Part shown: one piece after another, positions 10,809 to 53,998 of the stretch
Numbering within the stretch: the first letter of the stretch is position 1
How the letters are laid out: every line of letters begins with the position of its first letter
Sequence record: NC_079184.1
DNA: 53,998 nucleotides
Direction: 5' to 3' (one strand)
Source of the DNA: Escherichia phage vB_EcoM_DE15
Program-made: the position numbers and the translations under genes
The notes under the pieces: generated by a model
What the model was told of the DNA's origin: nothing
The model's input: only the letters and a program-made list of their open reading frames with translations
The model's database searches: none

Positions 10809-11067
10809 AGAACTGGCTGACCAACTTAAGGCAGCAAAACGAGAGTCTGCAAATCAATCAGAACGCGTTGCAAAACTGAAAGGGCAAGGCTCAACGTCTG
10901 AAGAAATCCAGTTATTTACAGATAATGTCTGGTTTTCAATGAATCGTGCACAATTTATCGAGATTCAGGAAGAACGTCTTACTGAACTGGAGAAGCGTGT
11001 AGAAACACTTGAGAGCTTGCTTGTAACACTGCAAGAAACTCTGGACCAGGAACTGAAAAATGTCTAA
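10798..11067 (+). CDS. Hypothetical coiled-coil protein (89 aa, GTG start)
   Basis: ORF. Confidence 0.4.
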   Translation: MKVEELADQLKAAKRESANQSERVAKLKGQGSTSEEIQLFTDNVWFSMNRAQFIEIQEERLTELEKRVETLESLLVTLQETLDQELKNV

Positions 11068-11476
11068 CGTTAAGCTGGGCCAACGCTCCCTTGACCGACT
11101 CAAGGGTGTAAATCCTTCATTGGTGGCAGTTTTCAAGCGTGCATGTGAAACAATGCCGTTTGATGTAACTGTTCTTGAAGGATTGCGTACTTATGAGCGT
11201 CAACAAGAGCTTTTAAAGCAAGGTGCAACCAAAGTTTCAGTTAGCCGACACATGTCAGGCAACGCCTTAGACCTTGCACCATATCCGATTGACTGGAATG
11301 ACCTCGAACGATTTAAAGTTCTAGCTCATCACATGTTCAAAGCTGCAAAAGAGCTTGGAATTACCATTCGTTGGGGTGGAAACTGGAGCCGTATTGATGA
11401 AAATCAGCCGTATCCACCACTTGCACCAGGTAAGAAGAAGCTGATTGATATGCCGCACTTCGAACTTCCAGCATAA
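11060..11476 (+). CDS. Peptidase M15 family (L-alanyl-D-glutamate / D-Ala-D-Ala peptidase-like) peptidoglycan hydrolase
   Basis: SRHMSGNALDL (SxHxxGxAxD) and DMPHFE zinc-ligand motifs. Confidence 0.7.
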   Translation: MSNVKLGQRSLDRLKGVNPSLVAVFKRACETMPFDVTVLEGLRTYERQQELLKQGATKVSVSRHMSGNALDLAPYPIDWNDLERFKVLAHHMFKAAKELGITIRWGGNWSRIDENQPYPPLAPGKKKLIDMPHFELPA

Positions 11477-13876: not shown

Positions 13877-14551
13877 ATGTCTTATCATGATGATGACAAA
13901 GAGATTGCACTATCAACGTGTAAGCAATGGCTCAATGATAATGATGCCGTCTATCTTGCCAAGGAAGATGTTATCATTATGTGGGTCCATTTTAATCCAG
14001 AATCGAAGCGCGGTGAGTGGCAACGCTACAAGATGAAAGAGGCTTGTCGCATAATTAAAGCCACACGCGCTGGCTTCTCTGCTATGAAGTATATTAAGCC
14101 AGAGATGCTGATGCTTGCTGCACAGGAAGAAGAACGTGCATATAAGCAAGCTGTTAAATCTCGTTCAACTGTTCCTCCAGAGTTCTTTAATTTGGAGCGC
14201 GCTGGACACTTCAACAATTTAGAAATGTTGACACTGTGCCTGTTGCAAGAATTAGTTGGAAGAGGACAAAACATTGAAGCTGTTTGTCTTGGGGAACTCA
14301 TGAAAGAGTTGTTCTCGGCAAAGGGCTTTGCTGTGCCAAATCGAACTTTACGCTGGAAATTGTTGCGAGCAGTCGCGCAAGAAGCTGGTGTAGTTGTTCG
14401 TGACAGAACAAACCGACTCACTGTAACTGGAGTTGGGCGTTTTGTAGCAATCCAGATTGAGGGTTATGACGAATCAATCATCACTGAACTCACTGTCGCT
14501 GAGACAAAGGATTTAGTAAATAAAACATTAGAACGATTCAATAGATATTGA
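13877..14551 (+). CDS. Hypothetical protein (224 aa; ORF track gives 13820)
   Basis: ATG 13877 immediately after upstream stop. Confidence 0.45.
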   Translation: MSYHDDDKEIALSTCKQWLNDNDAVYLAKEDVIIMWVHFNPESKRGEWQRYKMKEACRIIKATRAGFSAMKYIKPEMLMLAAQEEERAYKQAVKSRSTVPPEFFNLERAGHFNNLEMLTLCLLQELVGRGQNIEAVCLGELMKELFSAKGFAVPNRTLRWKLLRAVAQEAGVVVRDRTNRLTVTGVGRFVAIQIEGYDESIITELTVAETKDLVNKTLERFNRY

Positions 14552-14580
14552 GTCGTTTGTCGAATCAGAGCAGTTCTGAA

Positions 14581-14601
14581 ACATTAGTTGGATGTGGAAA
14601 G
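14581..14601 (+). promoter_or_regulatory. Phage promoter-like motif ACATTAGTTGGATGTGGAAAG
   Basis: Motif family member. Confidence 0.45.
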
Positions 14602-14675
14602 AGAAAGGCTCTTTAATTTTTATCTAAGTCACGTCACCGTGGCGTGCAAAACTATTCAATATAAGGTATATACAA

Positions 14676-15014
14676 ATGGCTAAGATTGTAACCGTAACTC
14701 AGTACGAAGCTAACGATGGTTCCCTGTTCCTGACCGAAGCAGAGTGTAATGCACATGACTTCAAACTGGAAAACGGTGCTAAAATTGAGAAAGCTGCCGA
14801 AGCGTACCTGAACACCGTTGGCGCTATCGACCGTTCTCGCTCCATGCAGAAGAACACCATCGAGCAGTTCCTGGCATTCTACCTGCCGTGGGTTGAAGCT
14901 GGTGAGCCGGAAGTTGAGCGTACTAAGTTCGATACTCCGAAAGAAGCTAAAGTTGCTGACGCAAGTGTTGCCGAAGCTGCCGAAGCTGCTGTTGAAGAAG
15001 CTCCGGTATTCTAA
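14676..15014 (+). CDS. Acidic protein (112 aa) with host-like high-expression codon usage
   Basis: CTG/CCG/CGT-rich codons unlike neighbours; Ala/Glu-rich C-terminus. Confidence 0.5.
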   Translation: MAKIVTVTQYEANDGSLFLTEAECNAHDFKLENGAKIEKAAEAYLNTVGAIDRSRSMQKNTIEQFLAFYLPWVEAGEPEVERTKFDTPKEAKVADASVAEAAEAAVEEAPVF

Positions 15015-16104
15015 GTTGCCGATGGCAAACTTGAGAGACTAAGCTAAATCGATCTGGCATGCACTGGAAGATTTCCGGTGCTGCCTTGAACCCATTCTGA
15101 AAGGAAGAGTGGGCTTCAATGAGCATTCTTGTGATTAGAGTTGGGAGGTAGGCCGATGCCCAAGCTCATGGCCCAGACAAGAGTGTTCATTGAAGTTACT
15201 TCAATATGGATTGTCGCCAAGTTGTGGAAGGACGTGCACACAGATTTAACGAAGAAAAGTAACAGCCTGAGAACTGTGAAAATTTCCCGTTATGTCGTGG
15301 GGAAGTGCACCATAGCTTGGGTTCTTCACGTAGATATTACTCAGATATTTGCGGCTCGCTGAATGTGAGCATCCATATTGAAGTAGTTTTCTGAGTCTTA
15401 CGACGGGCCTAAACTGCCTGAAGTTATTGCGACTGTTTTATTCATTTAAAATAAATGCAAATGATTCTGAAATGCGAGTTGCGGCTTAATTAAATTTAAG
15501 TCCTCTCCGTGGTCTTCCAATCCCACGTAACCAAATTTGGCGCATTGTGGCTTCGAGATGTGATTAATAAATCGGAGCAATAATTAATTTGTATTCTGCG
15601 ATGCAATGCAGGCTTAAGTCCCTCAGTGCGCGTGGGGATGTGACAGAGTACAAACTTAATTATGCAGTTGGATATTTCTAGAGGACGGACGAGCACACTG
15701 GAATGTCTTCAATTGGTTTAGTGTGAGAAGCTATGCCAATATGAAACGTAACTCCTTGGGGAAGTGCTCCTCTGGATTTCCCTCCACACAGGAATCTCAA
15801 GCCTGTGGCAGCGACTTCGAAGCTGCACTGCGTAACCTAAATTCACCCTAAAGTGAGTTGCCCTGAGTATGGAAATAAACTGCTCATAACCGATGGTATC
15901 TACAAAGGTAGATTAAATCAGGTTGCCTGTTGGTACTTGGGTTCAACACCTGCTTGCACTCGCAAAGTAGTGCCTCGTACCTGAGATGAAGTGAGTCGGG
16001 ACCATCAATCCCACGTTATGTCAAAACACAGTAGGCGGCTCACGGATTCTACAAGCCTCGCAGTTCGGGAAAACCTGCGTTATCAAAACCCCCCTCTTTT
16101 ATTT

Positions 16105-16196
16105 GGACGAGTAGCTCAGAAGGTTTGCATTGTGCTCAGTCAGGTAGAGCAATCTGTTCGACAGATGTGTCGTTGGTTCGAATCCAACCTCGTCCA
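16105..16196 (+). tRNA. tRNA-like gene (anticodon loop GUUCGAC, anticodon UCG, Arg) carrying a 20-nt insertion in the D-loop; possibly pseudo-tRNA
   Basis: Acceptor GGACGAG/CTCGTCC, TA at 8-9, D-stem GCTC/GAGC, T-arm GTTGG-TTCGAAT-CCAAC, discriminator A; D-loop 29 nt with duplicated GCTCAG. Confidence 0.4.
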
Positions 16197-16228
16197 CCCA
16201 CTTTAATAATAGCAATACTGGAGTCCTT

Positions 16229-16369
16229 ATGGATTTTGATGCACTTGATAATTTAGACTTCGGTGCTGCCGAAGAAGCAATTGAAGAACTTAAGAAGAAA
16301 CAGGACGAAGAAGCAATCGTTCCTGGTGAGGGCGATAACGACTGCTCAAGTGGTGCGTGCGCCATCTAA
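16229..16369 (+). CDS. Small acidic peptide (46 aa) ending CSSGACAI
   Basis: GGAG RBS; MDFDALDNLDFGAAEEAIEELKKKQDEEAIVPGEGDNDCSSGACAI. Confidence 0.3.
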   Translation: MDFDALDNLDFGAAEEAIEELKKKQDEEAIVPGEGDNDCSSGACAI

Positions 16370-16377
16370 GGTGATTC

Positions 16378-16614
16378 ATGCAACAGCTTAAGTCAATCTT
16401 TCTTGGCGTCTTGACTGCATTGGGTATTCTCCTTGCAGTGTTCCTCAAAGGCAAAAGCTCAGGCAAAGCCGAGGAGCGCCAGGAAGCCAAAGAGAAGCAA
16501 TTCGATTCCATTAAAGAATCTATCGAGATTAAAACGCATGTTCAGAAAGAAGTGTCTAGCAGTTCTGATAGCAATGTCGATAGTGAGTTGCTCTCAAAGT
16601 GGGTTCGTAAGTGA
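16378..16614 (+). CDS. Small membrane protein, i-spanin-like (N-terminal TM helix plus charged coiled-coil)
   Basis: AAGGTGA RBS; MQQLKSIFLGVLTALGILLAVFLKG then K/E-rich region. Confidence 0.35.
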   Translation: MQQLKSIFLGVLTALGILLAVFLKGKSSGKAEERQEAKEKQFDSIKESIEIKTHVQKEVSSSSDSNVDSELLSKWVRK

Positions 16615-16738
16615 TTACTGCATGATTGCACAACCAATCTATTTGGATGTTGCAGAAGTGAAAGTTTTATCACGCGAAACCAAAACACAGATTTTAGTCC
16701 ACAATGAAACGTGGGCACAAAAGTGTTCGAAACGATGA
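16538..16738 (+). CDS. Lipoprotein in alternate frame overlapping the previous gene, o-spanin-like
   Basis: MFRKKCLAVLIAMSIVSC: signal peptide with lipobox-like IVSC. Confidence 0.3.
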   Translation: MFRKKCLAVLIAMSIVSCSQSGFVSDYCMIAQPIYLDVAEVKVLSRETKTQILVHNETWAQKCSKR

Positions 16739-17181
16739 AATTATCAAAGCAGTATATTTACGACAGAGTTTCTAAGCGTCAGGAACCTACTTGGCAAGTA
16801 GACACAGATGGGTATTTATCTGCTTCGATTACTTTGCCAGAAGGCACTTTCAACGTAAGAAAACACATCTTGGTGTTCTACAAAACAAACGGATACATTC
16901 CAGATTTTGTGGACCATAAAGACAACAACAAATTAAACAATGCTCCAGACAACTTGCGAGAAGCAAGCAAGTGCCAGAATCAACAGAACTCCAAACGACC
17001 AAAGAATAACTCTTCTGGCGTTAAGGGTGTGTCACTAACCAAACACGGTAAATGGCAAGTTCGTATTATGGCAAATGGTGTGAAGCATTACGGTGGATTG
17101 TTTGACTCTCTCGAAGATGCCAAACAACACATAGAATCATTACGATTGAAATTACATAGTGATTTTGCTCGTAGTGTGTAG
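16735..17181 (+). CDS. HNH homing endonuclease with AP2-like DNA-binding domain
   Basis: DHKDNNKLNNAPDNLREASKCQNQQN (HNH) and GVKGVSLTKHGKWQVRIMANGVKHYGGLF (AP2-like). Confidence 0.65.
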   Translation: MKLSKQYIYDRVSKRQEPTWQVDTDGYLSASITLPEGTFNVRKHILVFYKTNGYIPDFVDHKDNNKLNNAPDNLREASKCQNQQNSKRPKNNSSGVKGVSLTKHGKWQVRIMANGVKHYGGLFDSLEDAKQHIESLRLKLHSDFARSV

Positions 17182-18097
17182 AGTTAGCTTACCCGACAGT
17201 GAGTGAACAAGACGGACGTCTATAACTTCCCACATGGCCTAGCTAGTTGGTGGTGTAAAAGACTGACCAAGGTGACGACAGCCAAAGTCGAGGGAGTGCG
17301 CGACTTTAAATAACGAGACTCTAGCAACTTGTTGCGATGATGGTGTAAGCCCATGCGTTTGGAAGCAGGACTCCAACTCAAACAAACCTGCAAGTTGCTC
17401 TGGGCATAACAATTGAAATTGCTGCCTCGCATTGAACGCGAGAAAGTTCAGGTAGTCACTTCCTAGAACAGTGTCCGAGAACACCCTCGCCAAAGTGCTT
17501 GAGAACGTTAGCTCTGTCTTGCCAGCATTAATGGCACGTTGGCCGCGTAAAGGCCACAGCGTCTGACCAACGTATCGGTCACCAAATTCAATGGATTCGT
17601 AGAGTTAATTAAACCTGCACGATGGGATAGGGATGAAGCATCCGAGGCCGACTGTGTAATTGTGAACTTATCGTTCGCCGAATCCGCCAATTTACCTCCA
17701 ACAGTTATGCCTCTGTTCAAAAGGCTCAAGAGAGCGTCTGGCATACCGTAGCGATACGGCTTAGTTGCGCTGATTGTGTTGTGCAGAAAGAAAGTTCAGG
17801 CTTTCGTTTGGGTTACTCCTCATCCCGAAGTTAGCTGGATTCAAAATCCAGACTATGTTCCTATACACATGAAATATGCAAGTCGAGGGTTCTTAATGTT
17901 CAAACATGATGCGAGCATTAAGCGGGTTTATACTTTTCCCCGATGGTCCCCATAAACAAGGCTGATTCACTTGGGCGGTTCGAATCAAATTTAATAAGTG
18001 TCTTGGCCGCAGTGGAAACATCATTTAAGCCAATGTTTTGTAATGTTCGTAATAGTCCACGTCAGGACACTTAATTAAATTTTAACTGGAGAGAGAC

Positions 18098-18319
18098 ATG
18101 AAAACTGCTGAAATTGCCGAAGAGATTTATAAGGCCGTAATAGCCAGCCAAATCACAAGTGAAGTCCTGCACATGGATATTGAAGAAGTTCGCAATGCCT
18201 TTGGTGGTTTTGCAATCTTGTCAATAGAAGCTGCGGAAGCACTGACAAACACGTACAATCAACGCGAATATGAAAAGCGTTCTGTACTAAATGCGTCATT
18301 ACAGGCGTCATTAAAATAA
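18098..18319 (+). CDS. Hypothetical protein (73 aa)
   Basis: GGAGAG RBS. Confidence 0.45.
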   Translation: MKTAEIAEEIYKAVIASQITSEVLHMDIEEVRNAFGGFAILSIEAAEALTNTYNQREYEKRSVLNASLQASLK

Positions 18320-18375
18320 TACCATTATCATGGTGCGGAGCTAATTAATCTCCCACCATATGAACCGGAGAGCAA

Positions 18376-19026
18376 ATGATTACTGCAACACTCGTTGACC
18401 ACATGGGCAGCGACCTCACAACTGTTAATGCTGCACGAGTTTCCTATGGTGCAGAGTCGCATGAAATATCTTTACGTGACGAGAAGCTGATTGAGTTTCT
18501 TGCAAAGCATAAGCACATTACGCCGTTTCGCCACGCACAGGTAACATTGCGTTGCAAAGCTCCAATCTTCATTGCACGTCAGCTTGGCAAACATCAAACT
18601 GGCTTTAGTTGGAATGAGGTTAGCCGTCGTTACAAAGATGGTGAAGCAATCTCTATTGAATGCTTTGTACCAGATGTTGTATTTGGTCGTCCTGAAAAGT
18701 TGATGACTCAGACTGCACAACCGTTGCCGCAAGATTTTGCTGACGATATTCATTATCGCATGGAAAGCCATAACAAGGCTTGCATCGCTGAGTATGAAAC
18801 GTTAATTGGTTTGGGGATTGCCCCAGAGCAAGCTCGCATGGTTCTTCCACAATCCATGACGACTGAATGGATTTGGACTGGCTCACTTTATGGCTGGGCA
18901 TCTATGTATAATCAACGTTCCTCCGAACATGCGCAATATGAAGTTCGCTTGTTTGCGGAAGAAGTGAATAAAATCATGTCAGAACTGTTCCCAATTTGTT
19001 GGAAGGCTCTGACCAACCAGGAATAA
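18376..19026 (+). CDS. thyX: ThyX-like flavin-dependent thymidylate synthase homolog with altered RHR motif
   Basis: AARVSYG, PFRHA, SRRY align to ThyX signature regions; canonical RHR position reads KHQ. Confidence 0.5.
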   Translation: MITATLVDHMGSDLTTVNAARVSYGAESHEISLRDEKLIEFLAKHKHITPFRHAQVTLRCKAPIFIARQLGKHQTGFSWNEVSRRYKDGEAISIECFVPDVVFGRPEKLMTQTAQPLPQDFADDIHYRMESHNKACIAEYETLIGLGIAPEQARMVLPQSMTTEWIWTGSLYGWASMYNQRSSEHAQYEVRLFAEEVNKIMSELFPICWKALTNQE

Positions 19027-51984: not shown

Positions 51985-52326
51985 ATGGAACGATTATCCA
52001 TTCAGATGTTTCTGGACCTCATGCACCAATATGGCGTATGGCACGGCTTGCTCGCTGGTCTGACGGCTTTAATCCGTGGGGCATATGAGAGTGAGGGTTT
52101 AAGCAAGGCGTTGCTAGATGCGACGCTGTGCAGCTTAATCGGCCTGTTTGCATTTCAGGTCGCTGGCACATTTGAGACTTTCACGACTAACGTCACTATG
52201 CAGTTAGTTTTGGCTATCGTGATTGGTGTCATCGGTGCTAACCTCATTATCACAACTGTCAGAGAAAGTTTCTCTGGCGCAATCAAACAACTTAATCCTT
52301 TGACGTGGTTCAAGAAGGCACGATGA
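51985..52326 (+). CDS. Holin (putative, 3 TM segments)
   Basis: Three hydrophobic stretches in 113 aa; directly upstream of lysin. Confidence 0.5.
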   Translation: MERLSIQMFLDLMHQYGVWHGLLAGLTALIRGAYESEGLSKALLDATLCSLIGLFAFQVAGTFETFTTNVTMQLVLAIVIGVIGANLIITTVRESFSGAIKQLNPLTWFKKAR

Positions 52327-52343
52327 AATGATAAGGAACTCGG

Positions 52344-52898
52344 ATGCTATCATTCAAAGTTCTTGCACTTCTGACAGCTTTAGTTCACATCAACGCCCCA
52401 GCTTCGGTTGGGGCAGTGAATTCTGCTATTACAGATTTTGCAAGTCATTCCTATTTAAATGGAAGTCTGAAATTATCTTCTTCACAACGCAAAGAGCTAG
52501 AATGCTACACTAAAGTAATCTGGTACGAAGCTCGCGGAGAAGACAAACATGGAAAGATTCTGGTAGCTAATGTCGTCCGTAATAGAACAGAGTTCGGGAA
52601 GCCATTCGCTAACACCGTTTGTAATGTTGTCTATCAACGCAATCAATTTGCATGGACACGAGAAGCAAAGAAGAAGAATGCTCAATGGAAGCATGTAGCA
52701 AAGATTAATTATGCCACAGAACAACAACAAGTTCTGGACACCATTAATGTTGCAATCTCTTTTGTACTATTTAATCAACCCTCTGTCACCAAAGCAACTC
52801 ACTTTTGTACAGCATCGGAGAAGTGCAACTTCAAGAATGTCAAAGGTCTGGGACGTTATGGTGGCCATAAATTCTATGAGTATCTAGGAAATCTGTAA
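52344..52898 (+). CDS. SleB-type cell wall hydrolase with N-terminal signal/SAR-like segment (endolysin candidate)
   Basis: [21 protein letters not shown] matches the SleB/Hydrolase_2 core; N-terminal [25 protein letters not shown]. Confidence 0.65.
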
Positions 52899-53998
52899 TG
52901 GCTTACACTACCTTTTCACAAACCAAGAATAACCAACTATTAGAACCAATGTTCTTTGGTCAGAACGTTAACGTTGCTCGATATGACCAACAGAAGTACA
53001 GCGTCTTCGAGAAGTTAATCGAGAAGCAGTTATCTTTCTTTTGGCGACCTGAAGAGGTTGATGTTAGCCAGGACCGAATTGACTATGCTGGTCTGCCTGA
53101 ATGCGAGAAGCACATCTTTACCAGCAATTTACGATACCAAATCCTGCTTGATTCCATTCAGGGACGTGGACCAACCACAGTTTTGCTGCCAATTGTGAGC
53201 ATTCCTGAACTGGAAACTTGGATTGAAACTTGGTCTTTCTCAGAGACAATTCACTCCCGTTCTTACACGCATATTATTCGTAATATCGTGACAGACCCAA
53301 GTGTAATTTTCGATGAAATTGTGGAGAATGAGCACATTAAAATGCGTGCAATCGGCATCTCCCAATATTATGACGAGCTTCAACATCTAACTTCCATGTG
53401 GCATCTGCATGAAGATAAAGTTTCCCTTCGTGAGCTTAAGAAGAAGCTGTATTTATGCCTCATGTCCATCAATGCACTAGAAGCAATCCGCTTTTATGTC
53501 AGCTTTGCTTGCTCATTTGCCTTCGCTGAACGCAAGTTGATGGAAGGAAATGCCAAGATTATTCGCTTAATTGCTCGTGATGAAGCACTCCATTTGACCG
53601 GAACTCAACACATGCTGAACCTTCTTGCAAGTGGTGTTGATGACCCAGAAATGGCAGAAATTGCTAAAGAATGCCGTCAAGAATGCCAACTCATGTTCGA
53701 AAATGTGGCCCAACAAGAGAAAGATTGGGCTGATTATTTGTTCAAAGATGGCTCAATGATTGGCTTAAATAAGCAAATTCTGTGCGGATATGTGGAATAT
53801 ATCACGAATATTCGTATGCAAGCAGTTGGATTGGATGCTCCATTCAAAGGTGCTACTAACCCGATTCCTTGGATTAACGCATGGTTGAATTCGGATGCTG
53901 TACAGGTTGCTCCACAAGAAACGGAGATTAGTTCGTACCTTGTCGGGCAGATTGATTCCGAAGTTGACACCAATGCTCTGGGCGGATTTGAGCTTTAA
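52898..53998 (+). CDS. nrdB: Class Ia ribonucleotide reductase beta subunit (NrdB), host-like
   Basis: [11 protein letters not shown]...[18 protein letters not shown]...[18 protein letters not shown] strongly resembles enterobacterial NrdB as recalled. Confidence 0.85.

Follow-up and report, generated by a model that had tools for sequence, protein, structure and literature searches.

The segment between positions 16,229 and 16,738 lies in a window of 53,998 nucleotides (NC_079184.1), by which we mean the whole stretch of DNA that was analysed, and which is the genome of a Carltongylesvirus (Chaseviridae, phiEcoM-GJ1-like myophage). An earlier note, made from the letters alone, had described three ORFs in this segment, and the ORF list bears it out on the coordinates and length of each. 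The features of the locus and of the distant lysis genes are:

14579-14598, plus strand: phage-RNA-polymerase promoter-like site, the nearest one upstream of the module (exact 20-mer)
16229-16369, plus strand: gene of a 46-aa acidic peptide (ORF list)
16378-16614, plus strand: predicted i-spanin gene, 78 aa (ORF, hydropathy, phrog_1026, orthologue of phiEcoM-GJ1 gp31)
16538-16738, plus strand: predicted o-spanin gene, 66 aa (ORF, phrog_1275, lipobox, conserved Cys)
16538-16614, plus strand: dual-coding overlap, 77 nt (i-spanin C-terminus and o-spanin signal peptide plus lipobox)
16734-17187, plus strand: HNH homing-endonuclease cassette, 454 bp (CDS 16735-17181, 148 aa)
51985-52326, plus strand: holin, 113 aa (Pfam Phage_holin_3_1, 6e-08; annotated as holin/anti-holin in Mangalitsa)
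52344-52898, plus strand: endolysin, 184 aa, Hydrolase_2/SleB-type with a hydrophobic N-terminus (Pfam Hydrolase_2, 2.5e-15)

The promoter-like site is identical to the 'putative phage promoter 7' of phiEcoM-GJ1 (20/20 nt). It is probably the start of a transcript that carries the tRNA, the peptide, the spanins and the nucleotide-metabolism genes, although this transcriptional role is one that we infer. A scan of positions 14500-18400 found neither a sigma-70-like promoter nor a plus-strand terminator, the tRNA was the sole match in an Rfam scan of the 14-19 kb region, and none of the three small proteins matched a Pfam family.

As judged by hydropathy only, the 78-aa protein contains a single hydrophobic stretch (residues 7-21, mean Kyte-Doolittle value of 2.75) and no second one. 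The transmembrane helix would span approximately residues 7-23 (nucleotides 16396-16446). The remaining 54 residues, which are predicted to be periplasmic, comprise 11 K/R and 11 D/E and are devoid of Cys. This is the topology of an i-spanin, and hydropathy together with the charge count agrees with the N-terminal helix and charged tail that had been proposed for this protein. Its match to phrog_1026 ('Rz-like spanin', 7.6e-19) aligns residues 1-78 with profile positions 4-84 of 85, and its conserved C-terminus, VQKEVSSSSDSNVDSELLSKWVRK, is encoded within the 77-nt overlap. For the phiEcoM-GJ1 i-spanin, the supplement of Kongari et al. 2018 (PMC6139136) gives helical structure in 35 of the 55 periplasmic residues and one coiled-coil segment, 26-58.

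The 66-aa ORF runs from an ATG at 16538 to a stop at 16738 in the +1 frame relative to the i-spanin gene. Its product starts with MFRKK followed by a hydrophobic core and then IVSC, with a predicted signal peptide MFRKKCLAVLIAMSIVS. The segment AVLIAMSIVS-C18 satisfies the PROSITE-PS51257-type rule {DERK}(6)-[LIVMFWSTAG](2)-[LIVMFYSTAGCQ]-[AGS]-C, the n-region has three K/R, and the lipobox residue Cys18 corresponds to codon 16589-16591. The predicted mature protein is 49 aa long and contains Cys28 and Cys63. Hence, the signal peptide, the lipobox-like IVSC and the Cys-containing mature part of ~49 aa that the earlier note had suggested are all in place. The same rule is passed by 10/10 o-spanin homologues, and C18, C28 and C63 are invariant in these 10 sequences, which come from different genera and are 31-45% identical. 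Position +2 is occupied by Ser in this phage and by S, Q, T or V in the homologues. With Asp never found there, the protein is predicted to be sorted to the outer membrane. In terms of presence only, periplasmic cysteines for a homotypic disulfide are found in the o-spanin (C28 and C63) and are absent from the i-spanin. The match to phrog_1275 ('Rz-like spanin', 5.2e-18) aligns residues 1-65 with profile positions 4-71 of 81. Modelling the o-spanin by itself with single-sequence AF2 gave an uninformative structure (pLDDT of 48.6).

A lipobox in an alternate frame could in principle be fortuitous, with the 78-aa protein being the sole real gene and the 66-aa ORF remaining untranslated. The six frames of the window contain two lipobox-bearing ORFs versus about one in shuffled windows, and the other of the two (40795, minus strand) is clearly spurious. 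The ribosome-binding site of the o-spanin gene is weak (GAG, 13-15 nt upstream). Furthermore, gene callers usually miss this ORF: the protein database holds only two o-spanin entries, which are near-identical, and many records lack the annotation. A lipobox ORF by itself is not above chance. The position and the conservation of this one are above chance, and no other ORF in the window is a credible lipoprotein.

A comparison of nine distinct Carltongylesvirus sequences bears directly on this question. None of the overlap sites is variable (0/74), whereas the flanking coding sequence has 57 variable sites out of 417 (14%; overlap versus flanks, P about 1.9e-5). Outside the overlap, each spanin gene shows a third-position bias in its own frame, and in the o-spanin-only part, past the i-spanin stop, the variable sites are distributed as 4, 1 and 9 over the three codon positions of the o-spanin frame. 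Both ORFs are conserved across six genera. In Faunus, 4HA13 and phiA050, the o-spanin ORF barely overlaps the i-spanin gene, yet the ORF, its lipobox and the three Cys are retained. These patterns indicate that selection acts on both reading frames as genuine genes, and they make a chance ORF extremely improbable. The earlier note had placed the 66-aa ORF inside the 78-aa gene in another frame. That the ORF is in another frame was correct (it is the +1 frame), but the containment was not: the o-spanin gene has 77 nt in common with the i-spanin gene and extends for another 124 nt beyond its end, so the architecture is 'overlapped' and not 'embedded'.

The data support the assignment of the 78-aa and 66-aa proteins as a predicted two-component spanin, one that was known before this analysis from prediction alone. 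In the supplement of Kongari et al. 2018 (PMC6139136), the phiEcoM-GJ1 pair appears as an overlapped ('ovl') two-component spanin with a 77-nt overlap and an i-spanin of 78 aa. Having been catalogued since 2018, the pair is ordinary. The orthologue of the i-spanin in phiEcoM-GJ1, gp31, is annotated as an Rz-like spanin and its o-spanin is unannotated in the record; both genes are annotated as spanins in the RefSeq entries of Mangalitsa (gp37/gp38, 'Rz-like spanin') and Shigella phage 2KOFFS. Six genera of Chaseviridae retain the pair in this genomic location. The PHROG matches of both proteins are to lysis families and nothing else, with similarity to other Rz-like PHROGs limited to weak profile matches (E of 0.003-0.009). 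The Rz/Rz1-type reading of the earlier note thus holds on four counts, namely the full-length PHROG matches, the Kongari listing, the RefSeq annotations and the homologues in lysis cassettes. With 54 and 48 residues, the predicted periplasmic parts are very short compared with that of lambda Rz (~130), and equally short spanins are catalogued in the same supplement (PMC6139136). A literature search on this spanin family found no experimental report, and the genome announcements of Mangalitsa and Myduc do not discuss lysis genes. Many public Carltongylesvirus records omit the o-spanin or label the i-spanin 'endolysin'.

The 3' end of the o-spanin gene is altered in this phage by the HNH cassette, which is inserted 14 nt before the ancestral stop codon with both flanks colinear with Mangalitsa. 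The ATG of the HNH CDS, which matches Pfam HNH_3 and phrog_99, overlaps the new o-spanin stop (ATGA), and the C-terminus changes from ...KCSKLTRQ to ...KCSKR. The same arrangement is annotated in Shigella phage 2KOFFS. Since the lost LTRQ is conserved across genera, this o-spanin allele could be impaired. As a natural truncation at the C-terminus, it could reveal whether the conserved LTRQ tail is of importance.

Linkage to the holin and endolysin genes, which is usual for spanins but does not define them, is not found here. The holin and endolysin lie 35.2 kb downstream of the pair, and both are supported by Pfam, as is consistent with the gap of ~35 kb to a holin and a SleB-type lysin reported by the earlier note. 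The endolysin gene is followed directly by nrdB; the ORF list shows no spanin beside the endolysin, and the genome has no other spanin candidate. The surprise that the earlier note implied in a distant spanin is nothing new, however, as the T4 genes pseT.3/pseT.2 are unlinked from t and e, and Chaseviridae share the position seen here.

The location nevertheless raises the question of whether a transmembrane protein and a lipoprotein could form an early or middle envelope module that serves in superinfection exclusion or receptor masking (cf. T5 Llp and Cor-type proteins). Such a function would account for the place of the genes among early/middle genes, after a phage-RNA-polymerase promoter and at a distance of 35 kb from the holin and endolysin genes. 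In Mangalitsa, a T4 Imm-like gene lies ~0.4 kb upstream of the peptide gene and 0.5 kb upstream of the i-spanin gene, which shows that the neighbourhood tolerates exclusion genes, and the spanin function of the family is itself known from prediction only. Against this, in mEp390 and AF the place of the spanins directly behind the endolysin is taken by homologues of the two proteins, paired and frame-overlapped genes are a hallmark of spanins, the PHROG matches point to lysis families alone, an envelope module would leave the genome with no spanin candidate, and T4 demonstrates that unlinked spanins are normal. We therefore find an envelope module quite improbable.

Hence, very probably, positions 16378-16738 encode an overlapped two-component spanin that acts in lysis, a function suggested by its signals, its synteny and analogy. 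The N-terminal helix would anchor the i-spanin in the inner membrane, and its short, charged and largely helical domain would extend into the periplasm. The o-spanin would be exported, lipidated on Cys18 and, having no Asp at +2, sorted to the outer membrane by the Lol system. By analogy with lambda Rz/Rz1 and T4 PseT.3/PseT.2, the C-terminal parts of the two proteins would then bind to each other and form a bridge across the periplasm. Homotypic disulfides could stabilise this bridge covalently, as in T4; with no Cys in the i-spanin, they are assigned to the two cysteines conserved in the o-spanin. The peptidoglycan mesh would keep the bridge inactive until the wall has been removed by the action of the holin (51985) and the SleB-type endolysin (52344), upon which the spanin complexes would fuse or disrupt both membranes, the last step of lysis. 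The pair probably shares a transcript from the phage-RNA-polymerase promoter with the middle genes (nucleotide metabolism and replication). Such transcription would do no harm, as spanins stay inactive for as long as the wall is intact.

The gene immediately upstream encodes a 46-aa peptide with a net charge of -11 and a tail that ends in DNDCSSGACAI. An AF2 model of the peptide has a helix at residues 11-28 and a disordered region at residues 29-46. The gene is under purifying selection, with 2, 1 and 14 variable sites by codon position. As to the good expression that the earlier note ascribed to the peptide, the one sequence feature that bears on it is a GGAG 5 nt upstream of the gene. The peptide belongs to a family of 44 clusters of small phage proteins (38-60 aa) that end in D-C-x2-4-C-K-I, with DNDCGD(A/G)CKI as the consensus end.

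Its location raises the question of whether it could be a cytoplasmic third partner, or a regulator, in the spanin module that is translationally coupled to the i-spanin. The peptide gene is immediately upstream of the i-spanin gene in five Chaseviridae genera and overlaps its start in Faunus, phiA050, Myduc/PA_03 and SSEM1. On the other side, phage 4HA13 and phages of the PM1/Okapia type keep the spanins without the peptide, the mEp390 and AF cassettes lack it, and in 2KOFFS a separate ORF lies between the peptide and i-spanin genes. The peptide has no export signal. Spanins are absent from the genomic contexts of the peptide family in other phages, and the adjacency is found only in Chaseviridae; the contexts outside this family are unrelated (methylase islands, an SU10-like podophage, phiKZ-like jumbo phages and next to DUF7484). 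We rejected the spanin accessory on the basis of these contexts and consider it very improbable. From its sequence and its surroundings, the peptide is an independent, uncharacterised small phage protein of a widespread unannotated family and not a spanin component.

The ending of the peptide resembles the redox tail of E. coli NrdA (class Ia RNR alpha, Cys754/Cys759), as both have an acidic disordered D-C-x-S-G-A-C-x-I motif at the extreme C-terminus. The tails compared were IVPGEGDNDCSSGACAI for the peptide and LVPSIQDDGCESGACKI (...DDGCESGACKI) for E. coli NrdA, and the gammaproteobacterial NrdA consensus was taken as DD[DG]C[AES][GS]GACK[IL]. An hhalign comparison with NrdA C-termini aligned the two end-to-end (P of 2.6e-4, probability of 42%), with the match confined to ~13 columns, which amounts to no more than a motif-level resemblance. 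There are differences as well. The peptide is free-standing, with no RNR barrel attached, so that the 46-aa ORF does not form part of an RNR alpha polypeptide. Its family has a Cys spacing of 2-4, whereas that of gammaproteobacterial NrdA is fixed at 4, and it possesses an extra conserved N-terminal helix, phi-D-F-D-x-phi-E.

One could imagine that the peptide, as a free-standing protein, mimics the C-terminal redox tail of host NrdA and functions as a shuttle or a decoy, and we regard this as rather unlikely. As a shuttle, it would take electrons from host thioredoxin/glutaredoxin and re-reduce the RNR active site in trans, resulting in more dNTP, and as a decoy it would capture thioredoxin or glutaredoxin. 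Carltongylesvirus carries an orphan, host-like nrdB, the product of which is 79.5% identical to E. coli NrdB. No nrdA was found in the window or in Mangalitsa, so the phage NrdB must pair with host NrdA. If the peptide were a mimic, it would complement this orphan nrdB. A co-occurrence of the peptide with nrdB was considered and rejected: Orgeat (50.0/53.6 kb scanned) and phiA050 (50.0/53.3 kb scanned) have the peptide, and no nrdB was seen. Neither the peptide nor nrdB is present in 4HA13 and Okapia. Host-specific co-variation of the peptide and NrdA tails was likewise unsupported, as the NrdA tails of gammaproteobacteria are nearly uniform (C-x4-C-K-I) and the Cys spacing in the peptide varies (2-4). 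The peptide profile produced chance-level matches only when compared with PDB sequences, and a literature search for an RNR-tail mimic returned general RNR phylogeny papers only.

In summary, the pair adds nothing new as a spanin, because it is catalogued for the type phage of the genus and its separation from the cassette has a textbook precedent in T4. Its modest practical value lies in the gaps in public-record annotation, the very short predicted spanins and the HNH-clipped allele. Only the upstream peptide offers a lead of potential interest. Should its NrdA-like ending be functional, the peptide would constitute a new kind of phage intervention in the redox chemistry of host nucleotide reduction.

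Among known systems, the closest are phiEcoM-GJ1 and Mangalitsa, in which the orthologous pair is located between the tRNA and thyX and the DNA identity is 92-98%. Over residues 1-65, the o-spanin of this phage does not differ from Mangalitsa gp38. In phiEcoM-GJ1 and Mangalitsa, the o-spanin has 69 aa and ends in ...KCS(K/Q)LTRQ, whereas here it has 66 aa and ends in ...KCSKR.

More distant homologues of both proteins, also encoded by overlapping genes, were found in mEp390 (gp51/52), HK639 and Pseudomonas phage AF (AF_021/022) by tblastn and alignments, with an identity of 26-37%. The i-spanins have in common the transmembrane helix, a G-K/H-S-S/R-G motif and a C-terminal D-x-E-L...R, and the o-spanins share the lipobox Cys, two conserved Cys and a K...HN motif. 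The BcepNazgul o-spanin family of Kongari et al. (Table 4, PMC6139136) takes in the short pairs of mEp390/HK639 and AF. In mEp390 and AF, the pair directly follows the endolysin (the order in mEp390 is holin-holin-endolysin-i-o), whereas here it is 35 kb away.

In this last respect the pair resembles T4 PseT.3/PseT.2, the genes of which are also unlinked from the holin and endolysin. The T4 i-spanin is likewise free of Cys, and the T4 o-spanin has two periplasmic Cys, both of which are required in T4. However, no sequence homology to the T4 proteins was detected (no PHROG cross-match), the T4 genes are separated and not overlapped, and their products are larger (117 and 83 aa). With lambda Rz/Rz1, the pair shares the predicted topology and the mechanism class, that is, a type II inner-membrane protein and an outer-membrane lipoprotein encoded in the +1 frame. 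It differs from lambda in that Rz1 is fully embedded in Rz, Rz has 153 aa with two Cys, and the lambda genes are part of the lysis cassette.

The unlinked gene pair proposed in the earlier note is a predicted spanin of Carltongylesvirus that has already been catalogued. The original reading was right and the feature is known at prediction level only. It agrees with PHROG spanin families, an 'overlapped' entry for phage phiEcoM-GJ1 and homologues in the canonical spanin slot. The proposed positions of all three small ORFs were exact.

16229-16369: ORF of the 46-aa acidic peptide
16378-16614: ORF of the 78-aa protein (i-spanin)
16538 (ATG) to 16738: 66-aa ORF (o-spanin), +1 frame relative to the i-spanin
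16734-17187: 454-bp insertion, clean relative to the related phage Mangalitsa, with an HNH endonuclease gene at 16735-17181 (HNH_3, phrog_99)
51985-52326: holin (Phage_holin_3_1)
52344-52898: SleB-type endolysin (Hydrolase_2)
52898-53998: orphan nrdB (small subunit of ribonucleotide reductase, RNR)

The only hydrophobic segment of the i-spanin spans residues 7-21 (mean Kyte-Doolittle 2.75), and the other 54 residues are charged and Cys-free, as expected from the N-terminal transmembrane helix and charged tail described previously. The o-spanin starts with MFRKK, followed by a hydrophobic core and IVS-C18. It passes a PROSITE-type lipoprotein rule with Ser at +2, and its mature part of 49 aa carries Cys28 and Cys63, which bears out the signal peptide, IVSC lipobox and Cys-bearing mature region of ~49 aa recognized before. 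The small ORF is not embedded in the 78-aa gene, as had been claimed: the genes share only 77 nt and the o-spanin runs 124 nt further, which is an 'overlapped' architecture. Neither protein has a Pfam match; both match Rz-like spanin families over the full length (i-spanin, phrog_1026, 7.6e-19; o-spanin, phrog_1275, 5.2e-18).

The lipobox ORF by itself is not above chance, and conservation carries the case. The six frames of the window contain two lipobox-bearing ORFs, compared with about one in shuffles. Besides the o-spanin, the sole Met-initiated ORF of at least 40 aa that passes the lipoprotein rule in the window (40795, minus strand, 79 aa) lies antisense within the tape-measure gene; its hydrophobic core is poor, and the match is most likely fortuitous. 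Variable sites were counted on an alignment of nine distinct Carltongylesvirus sequences.

Variable sites in the spanin pair
i-spanin only: 26/160; by codon position 9, 4, 13 (i-spanin frame)
o-spanin only: 14/119; by codon position 4, 1, 9 (o-spanin frame)
74-nt overlap: 0/74; none at any codon position

At the background rate of 57/417, a fully invariant overlap has P ~1.9e-5, and both frames are therefore under purifying selection.

For the 2-kb stretch around the pair there are 46 matching phage records (90-99% identity), and nearly all come from Escherichia or Yersinia phages of Carltongylesvirus, a Chaseviridae genus with phiEcoM-GJ1 as its type. The window contains the expected gene set (T7-like RNA polymerase, terminase, portal, thyX, holin, SleB-type lysin and nrdB). 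'Staphylococcus phage Pel53' is 92% identical to this coliphage region, which makes its stated host, S. hyicus, doubtful. RefSeq labels phiEcoM-GJ1 gp31, the orthologue of the 78-aa protein, an Rz-like spanin, and both genes are labelled spanins in Mangalitsa, 2KOFFS and BSBP01, with 'Rz1-like' used in PYps23T. Kongari et al. 2018 place phiEcoM-GJ1 among the 'overlapped' two-component spanins, and their supplement lists a 78-aa i-spanin at 14724-14961 and a 69-aa o-spanin at 14884-15094, overlapping by 77 (PMC6139136). This is the same gene pair, which was therefore already known as a prediction. Some annotations are wrong: PYps23T, PYps4T, PYps16T, PYps16N and PO103-1 mislabel the i-spanin 'endolysin', and Pel53 calls it 'L-alanyl-D-glutamate peptidase'; phiEcoM-GJ1, flopper, JL1 and EcoM1 leave the o-spanin unannotated, and PYps23T and PA_03 place its start too far downstream, so that the signal peptide is lost.

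A tblastn search with the o-spanin found ORFs of 31-51% identity in other Chaseviridae genera and also reached unrelated phages, among them lambdoid mEp390 and HK639 and Pseudomonas phage AF. The gene orders holin-holin-endolysin-i-spanin-o-spanin (mEp390) and endolysin-i-spanin-o-spanin (AF) show that these homologues fill the canonical spanin slot. Ten aligned o-spanins all pass the lipobox rule, none has Asp at +2, and the lipobox Cys, C28, C63, K49 and H55-N56 are invariant. The aligned i-spanins lack cysteine; their shared features are a TM helix, the motif G-(K/H/R)-S-S-G-K and, C-terminally, D-x-E-L...(W/F)-x-R. The o-spanins of Faunus, 4HA13 and phiA050 (stretches L015 1392-1701, L016 1368-1692 and L017 1398-1707) begin at an ATG whose overlap with the i-spanin stop is just 4 nt and have a different signal peptide, and the i-spanin 3' end of these phages retains in the +1 frame a relic 'M(F/Y)RKK...LI..S' without the lipobox Cys. 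The architecture appears to have switched within one spanin family from a 77-nt overlap to nearly separated genes.

The ATG of the inserted HNH gene overlaps a new o-spanin stop codon, and the o-spanin ends in ...KCSKR instead of the ...KCSKLTRQ of the insertion-free Mangalitsa; Faunus, 4HA13 and phiA050 keep the LTRQ(K) tail. The clipped allele is evidently viable, as Shigella phage 2KOFFS carries the same insertion. Upstream, at 16104-16200, ARAGORN predicts a 97-nt tRNA-Leu(CAG), its anticodon being at position 38 (Rfam score 45.2 bits). It predicts the same tRNA in phiEcoM-GJ1 but none at the corresponding site of Mangalitsa; in GenBank and in the literature the gene is a tRNA-Arg that 'may contain an intron'. 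In the preceding ~1.1 kb (15015-16100), which is a mosaic when relatives are compared, no ORF exceeds 73 aa. The place of a T4 Imm-like superinfection-immunity gene of Mangalitsa is taken in the window by unrelated sequence at 15664-15850. Rfam matches to tmRNA at 15382-15544 are sub-threshold only.

The 46-aa peptide is the only part that merits a follow-up experiment. It does lie just upstream of the i-spanin; its description as well expressed did not stand, as expression is not legible from sequence. It is a real gene: its variable sites number 2, 1 and 14 by codon position, it is at least 95.7% identical in 44/44 relatives, and Faunus, phiA050, Myduc/PA_03 and Loessnervirus phages have homologues of it right before the i-spanin gene. 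An exhaustive profile search points to a widespread phage family of 44 clusters at 50% identity, mostly 38-60 aa long, with a few C-terminal fusions to larger proteins and with the motifs phi-D-F-D-x-phi-E (N-terminal) and D/E-C-x2-4-C-K-I (C-terminal). Outside Chaseviridae these genes have no spanin neighbours and occur in methylase and AcrVA2-like islands, an SU10-like podophage and phiKZ-like contigs, and the peptide is missing from 4HA13 and Okapia, both of which have spanins. The peptide is therefore ruled out as a spanin component. In 2KOFFS (L005 237-443), an extra 68-aa ORF (~205 bp inserted) separates it from the i-spanin, so the two are not obligatorily coupled. Two unrelated contigs (L034 7019-8135; L037 384-2069), one of them phiKZ-like with TubZ and phiKZ_IP, have family members beside DUF7484 proteins. 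In two other phage-like contigs (L026 986-2068; L028 3969-4649), the motif makes up the last 40 residues of longer proteins (226 and 360 aa), whose neighbourhood includes DNA methylases and an AcrVA2-like gene.

The peptide tail ...IVPGEGDNDCSSGACAI is close to the extreme C-terminus of E. coli NrdA, the RNR large subunit (...LVPSIQDDGCESGACKI; consensus DD[DG]C[AES][GS]GACK[IL] in 97 distinct gammaproteobacterial tails). Class I RNRs re-reduce their active site via just such a disordered double-Cys tail (PMC9669993). An AF2 model of the peptide is helical at residues 11-28 and disordered in the tail (mean pLDDT 62.6), and hhalign aligns the C-termini of the peptide and NrdA end-to-end (P 2.6e-4, probability 42%) over 13 columns only. 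The resemblance seen in these alignments is at the motif level only, and it is unlikely that the peptide mimics the NrdA tail. The phage NrdB is 79.5% identical to that of E. coli K-12 and keeps the NrdA-binding C-terminus (compared with ...SEVDTDDLSNFQL); no nrdA was found in the window or in Mangalitsa, and the partner of the phage NrdB must be the NrdA of the host. Carltongylesvirus alone has nrdB among the Chaseviridae genomes that were checked; the gene seems to have been captured recently from an enterobacterial host, and its co-occurrence with the peptide was not seen in other genera.

By analogy, the i-spanin would be tethered to the inner membrane and the lipidated o-spanin to the outer one, and their C-terminal parts would associate to span the periplasm in a complex stabilised by disulfide-linked o-spanin homodimers. 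Degradation of peptidoglycan by the SleB-type endolysin would then free the complexes to fuse or disrupt both membranes. The bridge would have to be made by only 54 + 48 periplasmic residues, but equally short spanins have already been catalogued (Kongari et al. 2018, PMC6139136).

The holin and endolysin lie 35.2 kb downstream of the pair, in agreement with the earlier estimate of ~35 kb, and since nrdB directly follows them, the usual slot holds no spanin. Upstream of the pair, the closest sites that resemble phage-polymerase promoters lie at 14247 and 14579; no sigma-70-like promoter or + strand terminator was found in 14.5-18.4 kb. The pair is probably co-transcribed with the middle genes, which would do no harm, since spanins stay inert as long as the wall is in place. 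Some 4.9 kb before the spanins, in the early region, the genome has another peptidoglycan hydrolase gene (11060-11476, Peptidase_M15_4), annotated in Mangalitsa as the 'endolysin', a T5-like L-alanyl-D-glutamate peptidase; there are therefore two candidate lysins in different transcription blocks. The spanin pair has the same location, upstream of thyX, in PM1, Faunus, 4HA13, phiA050, SSEM1/Orgeat and Myduc/PA_03 (where the examined stretch stops short of thyX), and adjoins the holin and endolysin in none of them. The unlinked location is thus a family trait, and it has a precedent in T4, whose spanin genes pseT.3 and pseT.2 likewise lie apart from t and e. The likeness extends to the proteins: as in the window's pair, the T4 i-spanin is Cys-free and the o-spanin has two Cys, both of which are required in T4.
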